From positions 19,838-83,837 of the IMG/VR virus record IMGVR_UViG_3300034418_012856: a stretch of 64,000 bases of DNA; one strand, given 5' to 3'. Below the pieces are notes generated by a model, which saw only the letters and a list, made by a program, of their open reading frames with translations, did no database searches and was not told where the DNA came from. The translations under genes and the position numbers were made by a program. Positions 2,417 to 20,359 of the stretch are shown piece by piece (position 1 is the first letter of the stretch; the number at the start of each line of letters is the position of its first letter). This DNA comes from a virus.

Positions 2417-3091
2417 ATGAGCGAAAACACTGGAGATAGCTTTGAAATAATTGGAGGAGGATCTAGCAACGGCGGAACTGGATCAGGTACTCCTTTTGGG
2501 TATGGTAACAGTAACCCGGCTTTAACTACTGGTCAATCTGGACCATGGAATACCGAATATACGTTAATAGCAAACGACCCAGGATCTTTAAGGAGAGTAA
2601 ATCTTACTTTTTCAAACTATAACGATCCACACGAGGTTAGGATATTTCAAACCTCTCTTAACGTCACATACCAGGCTGATATAGAGGAAAAATTAGATTT
2701 ATCTGAATACTTTCACCCACTCCAGTCTTTTTCAAGCTACCAAAAGCAAACCTTTGTAATTTCTCCGGACTCCTCGATTAATCTGGACCCAGGTGATTTT
2801 GACACAACTTTAGGTGAGGTTAGTTTACTTATGGCAAGAGCACATTATAATGCTGATGCTGTAGAAGAACAAAGACTACTGTATTGGCATTATAATTCTG
2901 GTTTAAGATACATTATGTCAGATATGATGATGCTTACTGGTCAGGTTAAACCTGATGCTTCCTGGAAAGGATGGCAAACCTTACCAGATTTAGATGTGCA
3001 AGTTGGTTACACCGGTGCAGCAACCGGGGGTTTTGTTTTTTCAAATCCAACTGAATATCCGGTTAAACTAACAATATTAACTGCAAGCTAA
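2417..3091 (+). CDS. Hypothetical protein (probably virion), paralog of 3091..3636
   Basis: Shares YW.Y, MM.LTG, GW and GG..FSNP..VKL motifs with the next ORF. Confidence 0.55.
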   Translation: MSENTGDSFEIIGGGSSNGGTGSGTPFGYGNSNPALTTGQSGPWNTEYTLIANDPGSLRRVNLTFSNYNDPHEVRIFQTSLNVTYQADIEEKLDLSEYFHPLQSFSSYQKQTFVISPDSSINLDPGDFDTTLGEVSLLMARAHYNADAVEEQRLLYWHYNSGLRYIMSDMMMLTGQVKPDASWKGWQTLPDLDVQVGYTGAATGGFVFSNPTEYPVKLTILTAS

Positions 3092-3636
3092 TGGCAACTA
3101 GACCTATTATATGTCCACCACAACCTATAGATGGATTTCTTTTTAGAAAGGATAAATTTGTATTGGAGGAGGATTACAACATCACAAACTTCTTTGATTT
3201 CAGTGATCTCCAGGATGAGGTTATTTCTTATTCGAGATTAAGAGTGACATTGAAAAGAAATAAGAGCGTGAAAATTAGCCAGACTGATATAGGTGATGAG
3301 AATGGGTTTGTTAAATGGGTAGCTGTTAAGGTTAAATACCCAGCACCTAAAAATCCTATACTCTACGGTTCACAAACACCAATCATACCTGGAGTACCTA
3401 CTCCTACTAATGGAACACCACAAGTTAAAAAATACATCTATTGGACATACAGGGGAAATACCTACAATGTTGGTGAGATGATGATTTTAACTGGTAGTAA
3501 ATTGGGATCAACTGATTCCGAAAAAACTGGATGGAATCTTAGCGAAGATTTCTTACCTTATGAAGATGGAGGTATAACCTTCAGCAACCCACACACCGAT
3601 ATTGACGTAAAGCTTGAAATTATAATAGCTAGATAA
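3091..3636 (+). CDS. Hypothetical protein (probably virion), paralog of 2417..3091
   Basis: TAATG stop/start overlap; shared C-terminal motifs. Confidence 0.55.
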   Translation: MATRPIICPPQPIDGFLFRKDKFVLEEDYNITNFFDFSDLQDEVISYSRLRVTLKRNKSVKISQTDIGDENGFVKWVAVKVKYPAPKNPILYGSQTPIIPGVPTPTNGTPQVKKYIYWTYRGNTYNVGEMMILTGSKLGSTDSEKTGWNLSEDFLPYEDGGITFSNPHTDIDVKLEIIIAR

Positions 3637-3730: not shown

Positions 3731-6466
3731 ATGGACTTACTTAATCAATTAAAAACTCTTAGGGAAACAACCACTAACCCTGAAGTTAAATCTATTTGCG
3801 AATCTCATATTAATAAAATACAAAACGGGGAGAACGTAAATGAATCCGCAGTCCTTGAATCTGTTGATCAGGTTGTGAAGGAAAGCGAAGGCGAAAGCGC
3901 TGTGAATCCTATGGAGATGATCAGACAACAAGAAATTGAAAGATCTAAATCTGCAGCTCAGAGATTAATGGAATCTTGGGGAGGCATTGGATCATCAACT
4001 TCAAGAAATTCCGGATCCTATGTAGATGCTGAAAAGAAAGAGATCGATAACGAAGTTAATAACATCTCCGAAAGCTTAAAAGAAGTTGCTGAGAAAGACC
4101 CAGCAGCAAAGGCTTTTGTTGACTCACAAACAGTAAATAACTTAGGAGTTTATGAGTCTATTCTTTCTCTTAAGGGCACTGGAATTTACGAGCACCCTAA
4201 CGTTAAGATCCTTTGTGAAAAATATACACACCTACTGAAAAGCAATAACGTCCCTGAATATCTAGTTGCTGAATCTTTTGTACAGGAACTTCAGAACTTT
4301 AACTGGGACAATAAGATTAAGTCTGCAGTAGAATCTATTAGTGAAAAAGTCCAATCACACCTACCTGAAATTGAGGTATCTAAAGCTCTTTACTCGATCG
4401 AGAAAAGCGCTGGTGCTGATTTCTACTCACCAGTAACTGAGTCTTTGAATAAGTGGTTAATTTCAGAGAACAAATCAGTTGCTCTACTTTCTAAGGAGCT
4501 ATCAAGGTGGTCTTTTAACCCAACGGTTAGAAATCTTGTTAATTCACTTTCTTTGATGGAGTCATCAGAAAGTAAATTAAGTATTCCAGTTAATAACGGA
4601 AATTCTTCAGTTAAGAAAGTTTACTCTCCGGTACATGTAAGTGGCGGTAAAACCGTGTTTACCATTGGTAATAATGTCTTTGAAGGAAACTCTGAAGGAA
4701 TTAAGAGGCTTAATAGAGCAGAATTTGAAGCTCTTCCAGCATCTTTTAGATCTTTATTAGAATCTTTCTATTCTCCTATGGTTAAGATTAACGAAAATGG
4801 TCTTAGCTTCTATGTTGGAAACAGCAGCTTTAAGCTTGTTGAAGAAAACGATTCAGTTTCTATCTACTCGAAAGAAACAAAGATCAACTTCAGTGACCTT
4901 AATCAACTTGCTAAGCAAGTAGCTTTGGAGATTTCTGGTAGCTTAGGAGTTAATGAAGCTAAAGCGGTTTCAGATCTTATTAATTTATATGAGAATTTCG
5001 AAAATATCGTTGAGTTGGATTTTGCTAAGAGATTGGAATCAAAGGTATTTGAAGGTGTATCTGTAAACCTTATTAAATGGAACTCAAACCTTTACCTTAA
5101 CAGGATAAACGAGGGAATGAATGAGAATTCTCTATTTAAGGTTAACGGATCACAAGCTACCAACATGGTTAAGGATTTGATGAAGTACGACATCTCTGAA
5201 GGATTAACAGAATTTTTGGATGGCGAGAACAGAATCAAGTCTATTATGCTTAACGATAGAAAGCAAATCATTGATAACATTTCTATTGTCGAGAATGAAA
5301 TCAATAAGATTTCACATGCAATGGCTACAAACCCTCTTTACGAAAACTCAAAAGAAATGCACAGAGCCAAGCACATGCTTGAGCAAGAGCTTTCTTCATT
5401 GAGGAAAAAATGGGCGGCTGTTAACGAGGAGATCGAAAAGATTGAGTCAACTGCAACAGAGGTAAACGACTTAAACGAGGACGAGAAATTTACTGTAGGC
5501 GACTACGTGAAAGTAAAAGAGTCTGGTAATACTGGTAAGGTAATTTCAGTCGATAGCACTTCTGGATCTTATACAGTTCTTATGGACAACGGAAGAACTG
5601 GTGATTTCAGAATGGACGAGATCGTTGATATCGAAGAGGCATTAAAATCTGCTGGTGAAGAAAACCAAGAAGCAGACGAGACTCAAGAAGAAATCAAGGA
5701 GCAAGAAATGGCAGTAGCTCCTGAAAAACAAACTGAATCTGCAAAAGATAAAACTCCTGCTGCTACACTTAAGGCTAATACTTCTGCAGCTCCTTCTGCT
5801 AAGGATCAAGAAGATGCTGGTAAAAAAGACATCGAAAAGGAAGATCATGCTAATTTAGAGGAAGCTCCAGAAGGTAGCGAGAAGGAAACCAAATATGACA
5901 TAAAGTTAAAAGATTCTTTGGTTGACAAAATGGGATACAACGTGAATGAAAATTCTGAAGACGTTGAGTCTACTGAATCTGAAATGGCTGAGGCTCCTGC
6001 TGACGGTAACACTGAGTTATCCGAAAGAGACGTTGAAAACACGGATCAAAACCTAGCAGAAGCACCAGGTGGAAGAGATCATGCAGATTACGATGTAAAA
6101 GCTGCTCATGCAGAGGAGAATAATCCTGACATGGTTAAAACAGACCCTGAAATGGCTTCAGCTCCTGGTGATGGCACAGATAAAGAAATGCATCACGAGG
6201 TTGGTAAAGAAATGGGATACAATCTTGATGAAGCCAACGACGTTGAAAAGACAGATCAACAACTTGCAGTAGCACCAGGTGGTGAGCACAAAGCAGAATA
6301 TGATGTTGAAGTTGCTAAAGCTGAAAAGGCAGTAGCGGATGTCATGAAGACAAACCAAGAATTGGCTGAAGCTCCTGCAGCAGGAACTGAAGCTGAAACT
6401 GATGTTGAGGTAAACCCAGAAATGGGATATAACATTGACGAAAGCGAAGAGTCAAAAAAAAACTAA
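3731..6466 (+). CDS. Large prohead core/internal head protein with SH3/KOW-like domain and acidic C-terminal repeats
   Basis: Many (I/L/V)-x-E sites typical of gp21 substrates; FTVGDYVKV..GKVISVD domain; repeated [LM]A[EVS]AP and MGYN[VLI][ND]E; start moved to ATG 3731 because GTG 3698 overlaps the promoter. Confidence 0.55.
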   Translation: MDLLNQLKTLRETTTNPEVKSICESHINKIQNGENVNESAVLESVDQVVKESEGESAVNPMEMIRQQEIERSKSAAQRLMESWGGIGSSTSRNSGSYVDAEKKEIDNEVNNISESLKEVAEKDPAAKAFVDSQTVNNLGVYESILSLKGTGIYEHPNVKILCEKYTHLLKSNNVPEYLVAESFVQELQNFNWDNKIKSAVESISEKVQSHLPEIEVSKALYSIEKSAGADFYSPVTESLNKWLISENKSVALLSKELSRWSFNPTVRNLVNSLSLMESSESKLSIPVNNGNSSVKKVYSPVHVSGGKTVFTIGNNVFEGNSEGIKRLNRAEFEALPASFRSLLESFYSPMVKINENGLSFYVGNSSFKLVEENDSVSIYSKETKINFSDLNQLAKQVALEISGSLGVNEAKAVSDLINLYENFENIVELDFAKRLESKVFEGVSVNLIKWNSNLYLNRINEGMNENSLFKVNGSQATNMVKDLMKYDISEGLTEFLDGENRIKSIMLNDRKQIIDNISIVENEINKISHAMATNPLYENSKEMHRAKHMLEQELSSLRKKWAAVNEEIEKIESTATEVNDLNEDEKFTVGDYVKVKESGNTGKVISVDSTSGSYTVLMDNGRTGDFRMDEIVDIEEALKSAGEENQEADETQEEIKEQEMAVAPEKQTESAKDKTPAATLKANTSAAPSAKDQEDAGKKDIEKEDHANLEEAPEGSEKETKYDIKLKDSLVDKMGYNVNENSEDVESTESEMAEAPADGNTELSERDVENTDQNLAEAPGGRDHADYDVKAAHAEENNPDMVKTDPEMASAPGDGTDKEMHHEVGKEMGYNLDEANDVEKTDQQLAVAPGGEHKAEYDVEVAKAEKAVADVMKTNQELAEAPAAGTEAETDVEVNPEMGYNIDESEESKKN

Positions 6467-6642
6467 GAAAAATACTTAGTAAAGTTTGGGCTTTTGCTCC
6501 AACGGGAAAGGATCAGTCTGAAACACCAGAGCCTTTCGTCGATGAGATAAAAGATAAAATGAGCGTCGCCCCAGATGGAAAAGAACCAACTGGAGACACG
6601 CTCATTTCTTCTGAAGATGGATCTGAAGAGGATAAGGTCTAG
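6454..6642 (+). other. Putative programmed -1 frameshift site and ~60-codon extension
   Basis: A-AAA-AAC immediately before TAA 6464-6466; the -1 frame is open to TAG 6640-6642 and encodes further AP-repeat motifs (AFAPTG, MSVAPDG). Confidence 0.6.
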
Positions 6643-6645
6643 GCC

Positions 6646-6675
6646 GAAACTAACCTCGAGGTTTAAACTAAAAAT
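6646..6675 (+). promoter_or_regulatory. Putative GAAAC-N18-TAAAAAT promoter upstream of late sigma gene
   Basis: Same bipartite motif as at 648, 18621, 33218, 37227 and 40136. Confidence 0.5.
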
Positions 6676-6696
6676 AATATAAGTATTAATAAGGTT

Positions 6697-7056
6697 ATGG
6701 CAAAGGCTTATGTAAAAAATAAAGACCTGTTGGCTGCTATTCTAGAGTCAAAGGAAAAAGGTGAGCTAACACCAGAGACCGTCGAGATGTTTGGTTTAAT
6801 GGTTCAAGGCATTTCAAAAAAGATGGCTTACCGTGACCCAGACGATAAAGCTGATTGTATGGCTTTTGCTATGGAAGACCTTTGTAAATATTGGAACAGG
6901 TTCAATCCAGAAAAGTCGAATAATCCATTTGCATATTATACACAAATTGCAAAAAATGGGTTTGCAAAGGGGTGGAAGAAAATACATCCACCAAAGGCAC
7001 CAAAAACGATTCCATTCTCTTACATAACAGGCGATGACAATACATATAATGTATAA
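6697..7056 (+). CDS. gp55: T4 gp55-like late-transcription sigma factor
   Basis: YVKNKDLL..., F.PEKSNNPFAYYTQIA.N.F match gp55-family motifs. Confidence 0.85.
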   Translation: MAKAYVKNKDLLAAILESKEKGELTPETVEMFGLMVQGISKKMAYRDPDDKADCMAFAMEDLCKYWNRFNPEKSNNPFAYYTQIAKNGFAKGWKKIHPPKAPKTIPFSYITGDDNTYNV

Positions 7057-8179: not shown

Positions 8180-9808
8180 ATGGCCGGATTTAACGAAACA
8201 CCAGAAGGGAACCCGATATTCCAAAGGATTAGAGAGTCTGTAAAGTCTCTCAGCAATTTTGGTATGAGGTATGGTGATATGGTCATTAAAAATTCACAGG
8301 CCATTGGATCGATAGAAGCTGATTTTATGAAAAAGCAATCTATCGATGATGAGAGCTTGCTTTATTCCCTCGGTAGACAAGACACGACCACAAGACAATT
8401 TATCAGCTACTATGATAAGGATTACGCAGGAAAGAGAGATTATCTTAGGAAGTTTGCTCTGAATCCTGAGATAGAGTACATCTTGGATACTGTCTGTGAC
8501 GAAGCGATAACTTTTGATTCATACAACTTCTTTGCATATCCAGCATTTTTAAATCTTACCGATGTAAAGGATAAGATAAAAAACCGTCTGGACGAGAATT
8601 ATAAGAATTTGTATGACATGTTCGGCTTCGGCGATGATATCAGCGGGTGGCAATACTTTAGACAGCTAATGGTCGATGGCTTTCTTGCCTTTGAAATAGT
8701 TTATGATGACAAAGGTAAGAAGATTATTGGATTTAAGGAATTAGATGCAACTACTCTAATGCCATCTGTTGAAAAGCAGCCTGATGGTACTTATTTGAGT
8801 GTTTGGTATCAATACCCAAAGGATATCAATAAGAGGAGGATGCTATATGACTCCCAGGTGATTTACATATCATTTGCTAAGGGAAACACAGTTTCTAGGA
8901 TTAGCTATGTCGAAAGACTTATAAGGCCCTACAACATTCTTAGGATAATCGAGTACACTAGGGTAATATGGTCGGTTATGAACGCATCGTTCAGAATGAA
9001 AATGACTGTACCGATTGGATCGAGATCTCCACAGAAGTCTATGCAAACCTTGGGTGAGCTTATGAGTATCTATAAGGAAGATATTAGGTTCAATGATGAG
9101 AGTGGGGAGTTAACAGTAGATGGCAGACCTAAGATACAGTTTTATAAGAATTATCTAATGCCTTCTGGTGTTAATGGAACACCAACGATAGAACCTATTA
9201 ATAATGCTGGCCCAAACTTAAACGATCCCCAGCCTCTTGCTTATTTCTACGATAAGCTAGTTCAGGAATCTAAAATTCCTTTTTCTAGGTTCCAAGGTCC
9301 TGATGGTGGATCTATAGGAAACTATTCGAATGGTGCAGAAGGATTGGATAAAGAGGAAATAAGGTTTGGTAAGTTTATTAGTAGGCTTAGATCTATCTTC
9401 CAGGATCTTTTGGTTAAGCCACTTTGGATTCAAATGTGTAAGGATTTTCCGGAGTTGGAGAAGGATTACTTATTTAAGAGTCAACTGGGGTTGGAATATG
9501 TTTCTGATAATCCATTCAGGGTTAATCAAGAGATAGAAACCATGCTTAAAAAGAAAGAGCAAATTGATGGTATGTATGCTCTTACCGATGATAGCGGTGA
9601 GCCTTTCTTTTCATTGGCTTATCTAATTGAGTCTCATTTGGGAATGACTGAAGATGATATAAAGGCAAATAAGGAAGCTATCAAGAAAAGGAAAGAGGAG
9701 GAAAAAAAGAAAGCTGACGAAGAGGCTAAATCTTCGGAGGAAGAACCCGCAGAGGAAGCTCCAGAAGAATCTCCGGAGGAAACCCCGGAAGAACCCCCAC
9801 AAGAATAA
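8180..9808 (+). CDS. gp20: Portal vertex protein, paralog A
   Basis: PEIE..LD..CDEAI, VDG...FEI, SYVERLIRPYN.LR.IE, L...SKIP.SR, EEIRF.KFI.RLR. Confidence 0.9.
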   Translation: MAGFNETPEGNPIFQRIRESVKSLSNFGMRYGDMVIKNSQAIGSIEADFMKKQSIDDESLLYSLGRQDTTTRQFISYYDKDYAGKRDYLRKFALNPEIEYILDTVCDEAITFDSYNFFAYPAFLNLTDVKDKIKNRLDENYKNLYDMFGFGDDISGWQYFRQLMVDGFLAFEIVYDDKGKKIIGFKELDATTLMPSVEKQPDGTYLSVWYQYPKDINKRRMLYDSQVIYISFAKGNTVSRISYVERLIRPYNILRIIEYTRVIWSVMNASFRMKMTVPIGSRSPQKSMQTLGELMSIYKEDIRFNDESGELTVDGRPKIQFYKNYLMPSGVNGTPTIEPINNAGPNLNDPQPLAYFYDKLVQESKIPFSRFQGPDGGSIGNYSNGAEGLDKEEIRFGKFISRLRSIFQDLLVKPLWIQMCKDFPELEKDYLFKSQLGLEYVSDNPFRVNQEIETMLKKKEQIDGMYALTDDSGEPFFSLAYLIESHLGMTEDDIKANKEAIKKRKEEEKKKADEEAKSSEEEPAEEAPEESPEETPEEPPQE

Positions 9809-9817
9809 TAATATAGA

Positions 9818-11422
9818 ATGGCAGGTTTTTTAGATTATGTAGCAGAAAGATCCTTCTTGGGTAACCTGTATAAGAATTTATCCAAGGTTGGAAGGTTTGG
9901 AATGGAATACGAAGATATGGTAATTCGTAATTCCCAAGCTGTTGGTGCTACTGAATCTAACTTTTTCAACGAACAGGGAAGTGGATTTACTGAAAACAAC
10001 GCATTTTATTGGACCCTTGGATATCAAGATACGAAGGTTAGAAAATATATTGCCTACTTCGACAAGGACTACATGGGTAAAAGAGACTTCCTTAGGAAAT
10101 TCTCTTTGAATGGCGAAATTGATTTTATCCTGGATACACTTACTGATGATGCTATCAATTACGATGACAAAAATTTCTTTAGTTATCCGTCTTTAGCTAA
10201 CATTGATCTAAAGCCTAATGTGCTTGATAAGGTAAACGAGACATATCAGAATTTGTATATGCTGTTTGGCTTTCAGCAAAGCATATTAGCTTGGCAATAT
10301 TTTAAGCAGTTTTTGATTGATGGGTTTTTGGCTTTTGAGATTGTTTATTCTACTGATGGCAAGAAAATAGTTGGATTTAAAGAATTAGATCCAACCTCCC
10401 TTCAACCCGCTACAGAACAGCAGCCAAATGGTGAATTCCAACAGATTTGGATACAATACCCAGAGGATAATAAAATGACAAGGAAGCTCAGAAGTGAGCA
10501 GATCATTTATCTTTCGTATGCTAAAGGAAATACAATTTCTAGGGTAAGCTATGTGGAGAGACTTATAAGGTCTTATAACATTCTAAGAATCATGGAAAAC
10601 ACCAGGGTTATTTGGAATGTGATGAATGCTTCTTACAGACTTAAGTTTGTAATCCCTGTTGGTTCACAGTCTCAGCAAAAAGCGATGCAAACCCTTGGAC
10701 AGCTAATGTCTATCTATAAAGAGGAAATGGAAATTAATGATTCCTCGGGTGAACTAACAGTAAACGGTAGACCTAAGGTTCAGTTTTATAAGAATTATCT
10801 TTTCCCTGAGAAAGATGGACAATCCCCACAGATTGAAACCCTTGATCCCAATGGACCAGATTTCAATGTTATGGATAATGTTATTTACTTCTATAACAAG
10901 CTTAAACTGGATTCGAAAATACCTTATGCAAGGTTTGCTTTCCGAAATGGTACCCCGGCTAACTATCAAATAAGTATAGATCAGCTAGAAAGGGATGAAA
11001 TTAGGTTTGAGAAATTCTTAACAAGACTAAGATCGATCTTCCAAGAAATATTGGTCAAACCTCTTTACATACAAATGTGTTTGGACTTCCCAGAATTAGC
11101 TAAGGATAGATCATTCAAAGCAAATCTGGGCCTAAGTTATGTAAGAGAAAACCTTTTCGAGGAGTTTATTCAATTGCAAAACTATACAAAACGCACCCAG
11201 TTTATAAATGACCTTGGTGAAATGAAGCAAAAGATTGGCGAGGAAGAGGAATCTTATTTTGACAAAGAATTCCTGATTAAAAGGTATCTCGGTTTAACTA
11301 TGGACGAATATAAGAAGAACGAGAAATATAAGGAAGCTGAAGCTAAGCTTGCTGAGGAAAAAGCTAAGGAAGCCGGATCTGAGGGCGGAGAGGAAGGCGG
11401 AGGCGAGTCATTCACCCTATAA
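9818..11422 (+). CDS. gp20: Portal vertex protein, paralog B
   Basis: Same gp20 motifs; colinear with paralog A over its full length. Confidence 0.9.
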   Translation: MAGFLDYVAERSFLGNLYKNLSKVGRFGMEYEDMVIRNSQAVGATESNFFNEQGSGFTENNAFYWTLGYQDTKVRKYIAYFDKDYMGKRDFLRKFSLNGEIDFILDTLTDDAINYDDKNFFSYPSLANIDLKPNVLDKVNETYQNLYMLFGFQQSILAWQYFKQFLIDGFLAFEIVYSTDGKKIVGFKELDPTSLQPATEQQPNGEFQQIWIQYPEDNKMTRKLRSEQIIYLSYAKGNTISRVSYVERLIRSYNILRIMENTRVIWNVMNASYRLKFVIPVGSQSQQKAMQTLGQLMSIYKEEMEINDSSGELTVNGRPKVQFYKNYLFPEKDGQSPQIETLDPNGPDFNVMDNVIYFYNKLKLDSKIPYARFAFRNGTPANYQISIDQLERDEIRFEKFLTRLRSIFQEILVKPLYIQMCLDFPELAKDRSFKANLGLSYVRENLFEEFIQLQNYTKRTQFINDLGEMKQKIGEEEESYFDKEFLIKRYLGLTMDEYKKNEKYKEAEAKLAEEKAKEAGSEGGEEGGGESFTL

Positions 11423-19579: not shown

Positions 19580-20359
19580 ATGCCTGAGTTAGCGGAGCTT
19601 AAACTTACTTCTGATTTTGTCAATGGAGTTGTAAAGGATAAGGTGTTTACACACATATCTAAAAATCCAGAGCACAAATGGATTGAGGTTGATTTTGGTG
19701 AACCCTTTGCTTTGAGGTCTTTCAGCAGGGGTAAAGAGATTAAACTGGTTCTTGAATCTGCAGAAACTGACAAGGTCGATAATCTTATGATGACCATGGG
19801 CATGGGAGGTCATTTCCAATGGGCTTCTCGAGGGGAGACTATAAAACATACCCACCTTTTCTTTCACTGTAATGACGGTGGACATTTGGCCTTTGTTGAT
19901 GTGAGGAGATTTGGTAAATGGAAGTGGGGAGATTGGAATAAAGATAGAGGTCCAGATCCAACCACCGAATATTTCCTTTTCTGTAATAACATTTTACAAA
20001 ATCTGCACAAAAGAGCCTTTGATAAACCCATATATGAGGTGCTAATGAACCAGAGGTACTTCAATGGAATTGGAAATTATCTGAGAGCAGAGATTTTAAT
20101 CAGAATTCCTGATGAGGATCCTTTCCAATCTGCCAGAGAATTTATCAGTAAAAGGAAATGGGAACTATTTGAATTGTGTAAGGATATACCAATTCTTGTT
20201 TATGAAATAGGAGGGGGGACACTAAAAGATTGGAAGAATCCCTTTGGTGAAGTATCCTCAGTTCGGGCCTTTATGAAGTGTTACGGAAATCCAGTGATGG
20301 AAAAAATAGAAGATCGTGGCGGAAGAATGTTCTGGTACGACCCAAAATGGAAAAATTAA
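19580..20359 (+). CDS. nei: Fpg/Nei DNA glycosylase, NEIL1-like (zincless finger)
   Basis: Catalytic MPE..E, SRGKE, MGM.G, FVDVRRFG, H2TH NGIGNYLRAEIL, no Cys4 finger, DRGGRMFW. Confidence 0.92.
   Translation: MPELAELKLTSDFVNGVVKDKVFTHISKNPEHKWIEVDFGEPFALRSFSRGKEIKLVLESAETDKVDNLMMTMGMGGHFQWASRGETIKHTHLFFHCNDGGHLAFVDVRRFGKWKWGDWNKDRGPDPTTEYFLFCNNILQNLHKRAFDKPIYEVLMNQRYFNGIGNYLRAEILIRIPDEDPFQSAREFISKRKWELFELCKDIPILVYEIGGGTLKDWKNPFGEVSSVRAFMKCYGNPVMEKIEDRGGRMFWYDPKWKN

Follow-up and report, generated by a model that had tools for sequence, protein, structure and literature searches.

Extension of a protein at its C terminus by -1 recoding at a poly(A) slippery run is a known phenomenon (dnaX, IS1, IS3, mxiE, T7 10A/10B, and lambda G/GT). 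The insertion sequence (IS) IS1 has been proven to shift by -1 at A_AAA_AAC, and no stimulator is established for it (PMC4066793); in T7/T3 10A/10B and lambda G/GT, the extended form is the minority of the product. The locus described here lies in a 64,000-nucleotide (nt) stretch of viral DNA (IMG/VR record IMGVR_UViG_3300034418_012856, positions 19,838 to 83,837; the whole stretch is called the window), which is part of an 83.8-kb contig with 37% G+C from an uncultured T4-like phage. At the 3' end of a long gene in the window, a run of nine A's (A9), followed by one further base and a stop codon, is very probably a programmed -1 recoding site yielding a short and a long isoform of the encoded protein. 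A second, C-terminally extended isoform had been suggested by the first-pass annotation of the sequence, and the suggestion is supported by conservation throughout the gene family and by purifying selection in the -1 frame.

The 0-frame open reading frame (ORF) ends in ...GAG TCA AAA AAA AAC TAA, corresponding to a protein end of ...ESKKN*, and the -1 frame, closed until 6439, then reads RKRRVKKKLRKILSKVWAFAPTGKDQSETPEPFVDEIKDKMSVAPDGKEPTGDTLISSEDGSEEDKV up to its own stop; both features agree with the earlier description of the site. The extension has the sequence LRKILSKVWAFAPTG...MSVAPDGK...EEDKV, which is basic in its N-terminal segment, contains two further A-P repeats, and is acidic at its end. 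The start of the 0-frame gene is likely ATG 3731, judging from the homologues, all of which begin there, at the residue equivalent to M12, and most of which are 833 to 990 aa in length.

Relatives were collected from related IMG/VR DNA in two scans (76 loci plus the window, then 14 loci) and comprise 88 distinct contigs carrying the gene end, with 41 to 98% protein identity to the window and from many separate source metagenomes. Site statistics refer to 55 distinct 400-nt contexts, and background codon usage is that of this gene family. All 88 contigs carry A9, then C, T, or G, then TAA or TGA, together with an open -1 frame, and a continuous fused ORF was found in none of them. None of the nine A positions varies in any of the 55 contexts, and flanking positions vary freely; the tenth base is C in 41, T in 11, and G in 3. 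The codon providing the first A is TCA (26 contexts), TTA (16), CTA (7), or GTA (6), its wobble base being A every time, while background usage is 26% TCA among TCN codons, 47% A-ending codons for Leu, and 31% GTA for Val. Both Lys codons of the run are never AAG, compared with a background of 70% AAA and 30% AAG. The stop is equally constant: T[AG]A occupies positions 11 to 13 in 55 of 55 contexts, contrary to the expectation from codon usage. The -1 codon overlapping the stop is CTA (38), TTA (11), CTG (3), or GTA (3), followed by A, and is never CTT or CTC, though CTT accounts for 29% of Leu codons in the family. These codon choices show that selection also keeps the stop in contact with the run. 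In the window and in all relatives, both heptamers are in phase with the 0 frame, one subclade having A_AAA_AAG, and among the database protein homologues listed, 120 of 120 end in KKN or, once, KKK.

The length of the run, for which confirmation from independent reads had been advised, was the same in other data: contigs of an independent DNA run and of three metatranscriptome studies (RNA runs X9, X16, and X17) cross it as A9 without gaps. Since the RNA contigs from three studies read A9, a run of ten A's (A10) is not the major RNA species; assembled RNA contigs drop minor variants, and a minority of A10 is invisible in them. The A9 run is the only A or T run of at least nine in the 83.8-kb contig. 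Other A9 or T9 runs in 96 related loci are intergenic or lie in other genes. In-frame A9 runs in other genes of relatives were seen at position 1647 of L055 and L056, close to the 3' end of a 421-aa ORF that precedes the target gene, and at position 4870 of L068, in a 201-aa ORF downstream of the target gene.

Beyond the run, the -1 frame is open for 50 to 62 codons in every relative whose contig extends that far, and the +1 frame usually stops within 1 to 5 codons. In the other direction, the -1 frame closes 2 to 12 codons before the run, and entry must therefore occur at the run. Substitutions between relatives fall on -1 frame codon positions 1/2/3 in the numbers 398/266/1293, and the ratio of nonsynonymous to synonymous substitution rates (dN/dS; Nei-Gojobori) is 0.15 in the -1 frame versus 1.56 and 1.99 in the other two frames. 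Eight residues of the extension are invariant (L8, A15, P16, S37, A39, P40, G42, and K43). The extension carries two more copies of the motif [LM/W]-x-x-A-P-x-G, which occurs seven times in the protein's own tail; the resemblance of AFAPTG and MSVAPDG to upstream repeats, pointed out in the first-pass annotation, thus holds.

The extension is not an independent gene, because its conservation precedes the first start codon and the Met is lost in some clades. The -1 frame of the window contains no ATG, GTG, or TTG before M36, and conservation begins right after the run, 35 codons ahead of this first possible start; in some clades, M36 is replaced by the Leu codons CTA or TTA, which are unable to start translation. 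Furthermore, the most distant clades have a canonical intrinsic terminator (11- to 14-bp stem plus T7-8) ~15 nt past the extension stop, that is, ~180 nt past the annotated stop. The mRNA therefore includes the extension, as this terminator follows the extension stop; in the window's clade, the stretch from the extension to the downstream gene for a gp55-like protein (gp55) lacks such a terminator. Judged by its substitution pattern, the -1 frame extension is coding, and it is highly likely, on the strength of these comparisons, that some form of -1 recoding at the A9 run makes the long isoform.

In-frame fused forms combining the extension with a long N-terminal part were found neither in a word-indexed search of longer proteins nor in an exhaustive phmmer search of 1.84 billion representatives, and no A10 or fused protein was present in those representatives or in a 5.8-billion-cluster collection. 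The phmmer matches to the extension were small ORFs of 27 to 79 aa on the -1 frame and two repetitive proteins, P0124 and P0125, which were considered as fused forms and rejected as unrelated. One of the matches, P0123, is a 79-aa singleton on a 2480-nt contig in which the extension-like peptide is preceded in frame by 21 residues (lead-in including Met, MKNLKDFNEFVFEGEMSRSVY-KKKLKK...). Its DNA was not found in scans of viral and metagenome contigs. The lineage of P0123 may have a -1 frame that opens earlier, or a shift at a different place.

The mechanism proposed is a -1 shift by the ribosome. Most ribosomes would read ...S-K-K-N and terminate at the TAA to give the 911-aa short form, and a fraction would slip back one base on the nine-A run. 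The slipping tRNA would likely be tRNA-Lys on A_AAA_AAA or A_AAA_AAC, or else the last peptidyl-tRNA, with the stop codon still unread in the A site. Shifted ribosomes would then read the 59 codons of the -1 frame and end at the TAG, giving a long form of ~970 aa, in which the acidic disordered tail continues into a basic stretch, short and probably helical, then two further A-P repeats, and finally an acidic end. Three routes to the long form can be envisaged. Route a is a tandem -1 slip at A_AAA_AAC or slippage in the P site at the stop, with the junction ...KKN-L; in route b, two tRNA-Lys would slip back in tandem at A_AAA_AAA, and the junction would be ...KKK-L; and in route c, RNA polymerase would add one A, producing A10 mRNA that is likewise read as ...KKK-L. 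Because the tenth base varies while A9 is invariant, the functional unit is the whole run and not its last heptamer, which favors route b or c. The A_AAA_AAC heptamer to which the first-pass annotation had assigned the shift is present, in phase, and abuts the stop, but the invariant A9 and variable tenth base mean that it is not shown to be the operative element.

Ribosomal slippage at the A run, with the adjacent stop as a pause, is given about an even chance. The adjacent stop supports it, because polymerase slippage has no need for a stop, and a stop directly 3' of a slippery run reportedly enhances ribosomal slippage ("shifty stops," said to go back to Weiss et al. in 1987). Several results weigh on the other side. 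No conserved stimulatory structure lies 5 to 9 nt downstream, RNAalifold with 24 diverse sequences gave no consensus structure in the first ~90 nt past the run, and no conserved Shine-Dalgarno-like element was found upstream, where purine-rich motifs vary with the amino acids. Invariance of A9 with a free tenth base fits length-dependent polymerase slippage at least equally well, the RNA contigs show A9 only but would not reveal a minor A10 fraction, and bacterial RNA polymerases are known to slip on runs of about nine A's (PMC1088944). Programmed transcriptional slippage, in which host RNA polymerase would stutter on the nine-A template and leave A10 in a fraction of transcripts, is a realistic if less than even possibility; A10 transcripts would read K-K-K-L... 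into the extension, and A9 transcripts would give the short form. It would account for exactly nine A's being kept in 55 contexts, even at the wobble base of a varying Ser, Leu, or Val codon, for a following base that is free among non-A bases, and for the lack of any conserved RNA stimulator near the site, and the run is the sole one of its length in the 83.8-kb contig. Conserved A9 together with an overlapping-ORF organization in nonidentical homologues is the pattern by which Baranov recognizes such sites, with Thermus dnaX (A9), IS elements, and Shigella mxiE (T9) as precedents (PMC1088944). Polymerase slippage nevertheless leaves the contact of stop and run in every lineage unexplained, and RNA contigs of three studies show only A9, though assembly drops minor variants; in addition, the toleration of in-frame A9 in other genes of related phages disfavors very efficient slippage on A9. 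Polymerase slippage may well contribute alongside the ribosomal shift, both routes acting together.

Readings that dispense with recoding fare less well. The 180 nt past the stop might be untranslated RNA (a 3' untranslated region with a hairpin, or a gp55 leader) or an independent small gene, the short protein being the sole product. A covarying conserved hairpin does lie in these 180 nt, gene callers have annotated small ORFs of 27 to 79 aa here, and RNA contigs break around positions 6543 to 6627. This explanation is improbable, as codon periodicity and the dN/dS of 0.15 begin right after the run, 35 codons ahead of the first start, and that first M is CTA or TTA (Leu) in some clades. The hairpin spans only 50 nt, about half of the clades lack it and still keep the peptide, and the peptide repeats the upstream protein's own motif; untranslated RNA would also leave the invariance of A9 and stop unexplained. 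A homopolymer sequencing or assembly error hiding a true A10 and one continuous ORF of ~970 codons is exceedingly improbable and was rejected. Long homopolymers are error prone and the window is a metagenomic contig, but the 88 contigs, each assembled independently, all have A9, as do DNA and RNA contigs from additional runs, and the search of the two large protein collections described above recovered neither A10 nor a fused protein. Under A10, moreover, the out-of-frame T[AG]A would be unselected, yet it is invariant against the expectation from codon usage.

The RNA downstream of the run presents a mixed picture. The first-pass annotation had counted two small hairpins, 6462-6480 and 6484-6503, among the elements of the site. 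Both were considered as stimulators and rejected as not conserved, since they are confined to the window's close relatives and are absent from the RNAalifold consensus; in L027, L051, and L068, for example, the two arms of the former do not pair, and it is probably without function. Folding of the 97 nt that follow the stop gave nothing remarkable (z = -0.97). A match to the Rfam PreQ1 family (18.5 bits versus a gathering score of 39; E = 0.28) was taken as chance in A-rich sequence.

A longer imperfect hairpin had also been noted, and this one is conserved with covariation, in the form of the hairpin at 6557-6607, which is followed by UUUCUUCU. It begins 95 to 98 nt past the shift site and is therefore no classical stimulator, the distance being too great. 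Among 24 distinct sequences covering all clades with MSVAPDGK...LIS motifs, pairing is retained in 98.5% of cells versus 25 to 47% when the partner arm is slid by 1 to 3 columns, and the observed score was reached by 0 of 500 shuffles. In one pair, the switch between U:A (13 sequences) and C:G (11) is perfect; both of its sites are synonymous, lying in a Ser AGY codon and in the NCR codon before Leu, and its distribution over clades requires three or more independent changes. Covariation is also seen at two inner pairs. In the 3' arm, the rare Leu codon CTC is fixed (3% of Leu codons). The hairpin is absent from the MSFAPTGK and LSKAPTGK clades, being present in about half of the family, and it is not required for the shift, because clades without it keep recoding.

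RNA contigs of three metatranscriptomes break between 6543 and 6627, where DNA contigs run on, and these breaks, together with UUUCUUCU, are a weak hint of a partial terminator or processing site at 6557-6607. Possible roles for the hairpin are partial termination, processing, or attenuation ahead of gp55. A more specific scenario, which we regard as decidedly speculative and unlikely, is that hairpin and UUUCUUCU act as a terminator or a signal for processing whose formation requires the -1 frame to be free of translating ribosomes, so that shifted ribosomes would melt the hairpin and permit read-through to gp55. If this were true, the frequency of frameshifting would set both the isoform ratio and the supply of gp55 message, making the site a recoding-driven attenuator on the late-transcription switch.

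Structure prediction with AlphaFold2 (AF2) from a 25-sequence alignment shows a folded region at ~aa 130 to 655 with helical bundles, beta domains, and a long coiled coil, including a small SH3/Tudor/KOW-like barrel at ~aa 600 to 645; reliability is given as the predicted local distance difference test (pLDDT). Pfam returned a weak, subthreshold match to PF20297 (SH3-like) at aa 600 to 631. The acidic tail that follows contains the seven repeats, of the form [LM]-x-x-A-P-x-x-G, and three copies of MGYN. Functional relatives were found neither in PHROG, Pfam (above threshold), or PDB profile searches nor by Foldseek (PDB and BFVD) or in the ESM Atlas, and structural neighbors are uncharacterized proteins of Tenacibaculum phage PTm1 and of uncultured phages. 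The earlier designation of the protein as head-core-like consequently finds no backing: it has no PHROG or PDB relative, the only Pfam match is the subthreshold SH3-like one, its neighbors are uncharacterized, and PHROG, Pfam, PDB profile, and Foldseek searches detected no homology to gp22, gp67, gp68, IPI-III, or Alt.

Homologues in isolated phages are only distant and tail-less (Lak megaphages and LR756500). The homologue of the 462-kb megaphage LR756500 has 617 aa and stops after the SH3-like domain, without the acidic tail and without the A9 site. As it is also directly followed by gp55, the synteny with gp55 is old; on this comparison, it is much older than the recoding, and the acidic tail and extension are additions of the present clade. 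The family is present in fresh, brackish, and marine water samples.

The basic helix that the first-pass annotation had placed in the extension is weakly supported: the model of the extension contains a short helix only (residues 2 to 10; pLDDT ~60), which is shortened in the most distant clade. The first 20 residues carry a net charge of +6 and the rest -9. It is proposed that the long form changes the valency, affinity, number, or accessibility of the repeat motifs; alternatively, the basic segment of the extension may fold back on the acidic tail or bind a partner.

Table 1. Features of the recoding locus and of related loci (window positions unless a locus or accession is named; +, strand as given)
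Feature	Position	Strand	Details
0-frame gene, short isoform	3731..6466	+	911 aa from ATG 3731; ORF open from GTG 3698
Acidic disordered repeat tail of 0-frame protein	5660..6463	+	aa 655-922; pLDDT <50; net charge -48
A9 run	6454-6462	+	then C at 6463
In-phase heptamers within run	A_AAA_AAA 6454-6460; A_AAA_AAC 6457-6463	+	
0-frame stop TAA	6464-6466	+	adjoins run plus C; "shifty stop"
-1 frame extension	6463..6642	+	59 codons plus TAG stop 6640-6642
Small local hairpin	6462..6480	+	CUAAG...CUUAG; predicted fold of window
Conserved hairpin in extension ORF	6557..6607	+	outer arms 6557-6565 AAAUGAGCG : 6599-6607 CGCUCAUUU; inner stem between; predicted fold of window
gp55-like gene (T4 gp55-type late sigma factor)	6697..7056	+	phrog_234, E = 1e-14
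Intrinsic terminators after extension stop	L068 3890-3916; L082 4476-4508		also L070-L094
L081	LR756500.1 232160-236461		homologue ORF 1000-2853; gp55-like ORF 2875-3249, directly after

The A9-site gene sits between an exonuclease-like gene with unknown ORFs upstream and genes for gp55, head completion, and portal functions (Table 1); after gp55 come head-completion, DNA-end-protector, and two portal-like genes. The last two are tandem and full length (8180-9808 and 9818-11422; 542 and 534 aa), and both match phrog_213 at ~1e-57. Positions 6667-6690, ~20 nt upstream of the ATG of the gp55-like gene, read TATAAGTA, one mismatch away from the T4 late-promoter core TATAAATA. A scan of 6300-6800 for sigma-70-like promoters and terminators found none on the + strand, and no tRNA genes were found in the window.

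Gene callers stop at the TAA, and database entries therefore lack a conserved C terminus of 50 to 62 residues as well as the second isoform. The affected family is sizeable, with at least 120 clusters and contigs of up to 390 kb from aquatic T4-like phages. A bare slippery run with an adjacent stop, deeply conserved and with no nearby stimulator, would be a good system in which to separate ribosomal from polymerase slippage. In addition, recoding marks the repeat-bearing disordered tail as the functionally tuned part and offers a handle on the function of an uncharacterized protein syntenic with gp55.

Among the known systems, Escherichia coli dnaX (tau/gamma) shares with this locus an in-phase, A-rich heptamer of Lys codons (A_AAA_AAG), slippage of tRNA-Lys, and two alternative C termini. 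It differs in having an upstream Shine-Dalgarno-like element, a downstream hairpin, and a shifted product that is the shorter one, whereas the A9 site lacks a conserved stimulator nearby, has its stop in contact with the run, and yields the longer product upon shifting. Thermus thermophilus dnaX, IS orfAB, and Shigella mxiE (PMC1088944) resemble it in the conserved combination of a nine-base homopolymer with an overlapping-ORF layout, and in mxiE and the IS elements the slipped product is likewise the longer one. Those are cases of transcriptional slippage, in which the adjacent stop conserved here is not needed, and the present case concerns a gene of a lytic T4-like phage. IS1 insA-insB' (PMC4066793) has the same A_AAA_AAC heptamer and no known stimulatory structure, and its fusion product is made at a low level; there, two functional ORFs are fused into a transposase, whereas here a 911-residue protein would acquire a tail of 59 residues, and the slippery run is longer, at A9.

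As in T7/T3 10A/10B and lambda G/GT, the -1 shift lies near the 3' end of the gene and gives a C-terminal extension of ~50 aa or more that is conserved in relatives. The slippery sites of those systems (G_GUU_UUC and G_GGA_AAG) differ from A9, and T7/T3 gene 10 encodes the major capsid protein and lambda G/GT a tail assembly chaperone, neither of which applies to the protein here; nor does its gene lie between tail tube and tape measure genes, as those for G/GT chaperones do, its position being between recombination genes and gp55. Literature searches found no report of this site. The present case is characterized by an unannotated and widespread family, a minimal signal consisting of a bare A9 run and a stop, the deep conservation of that signal, and a second, independent RNA element within the extension.

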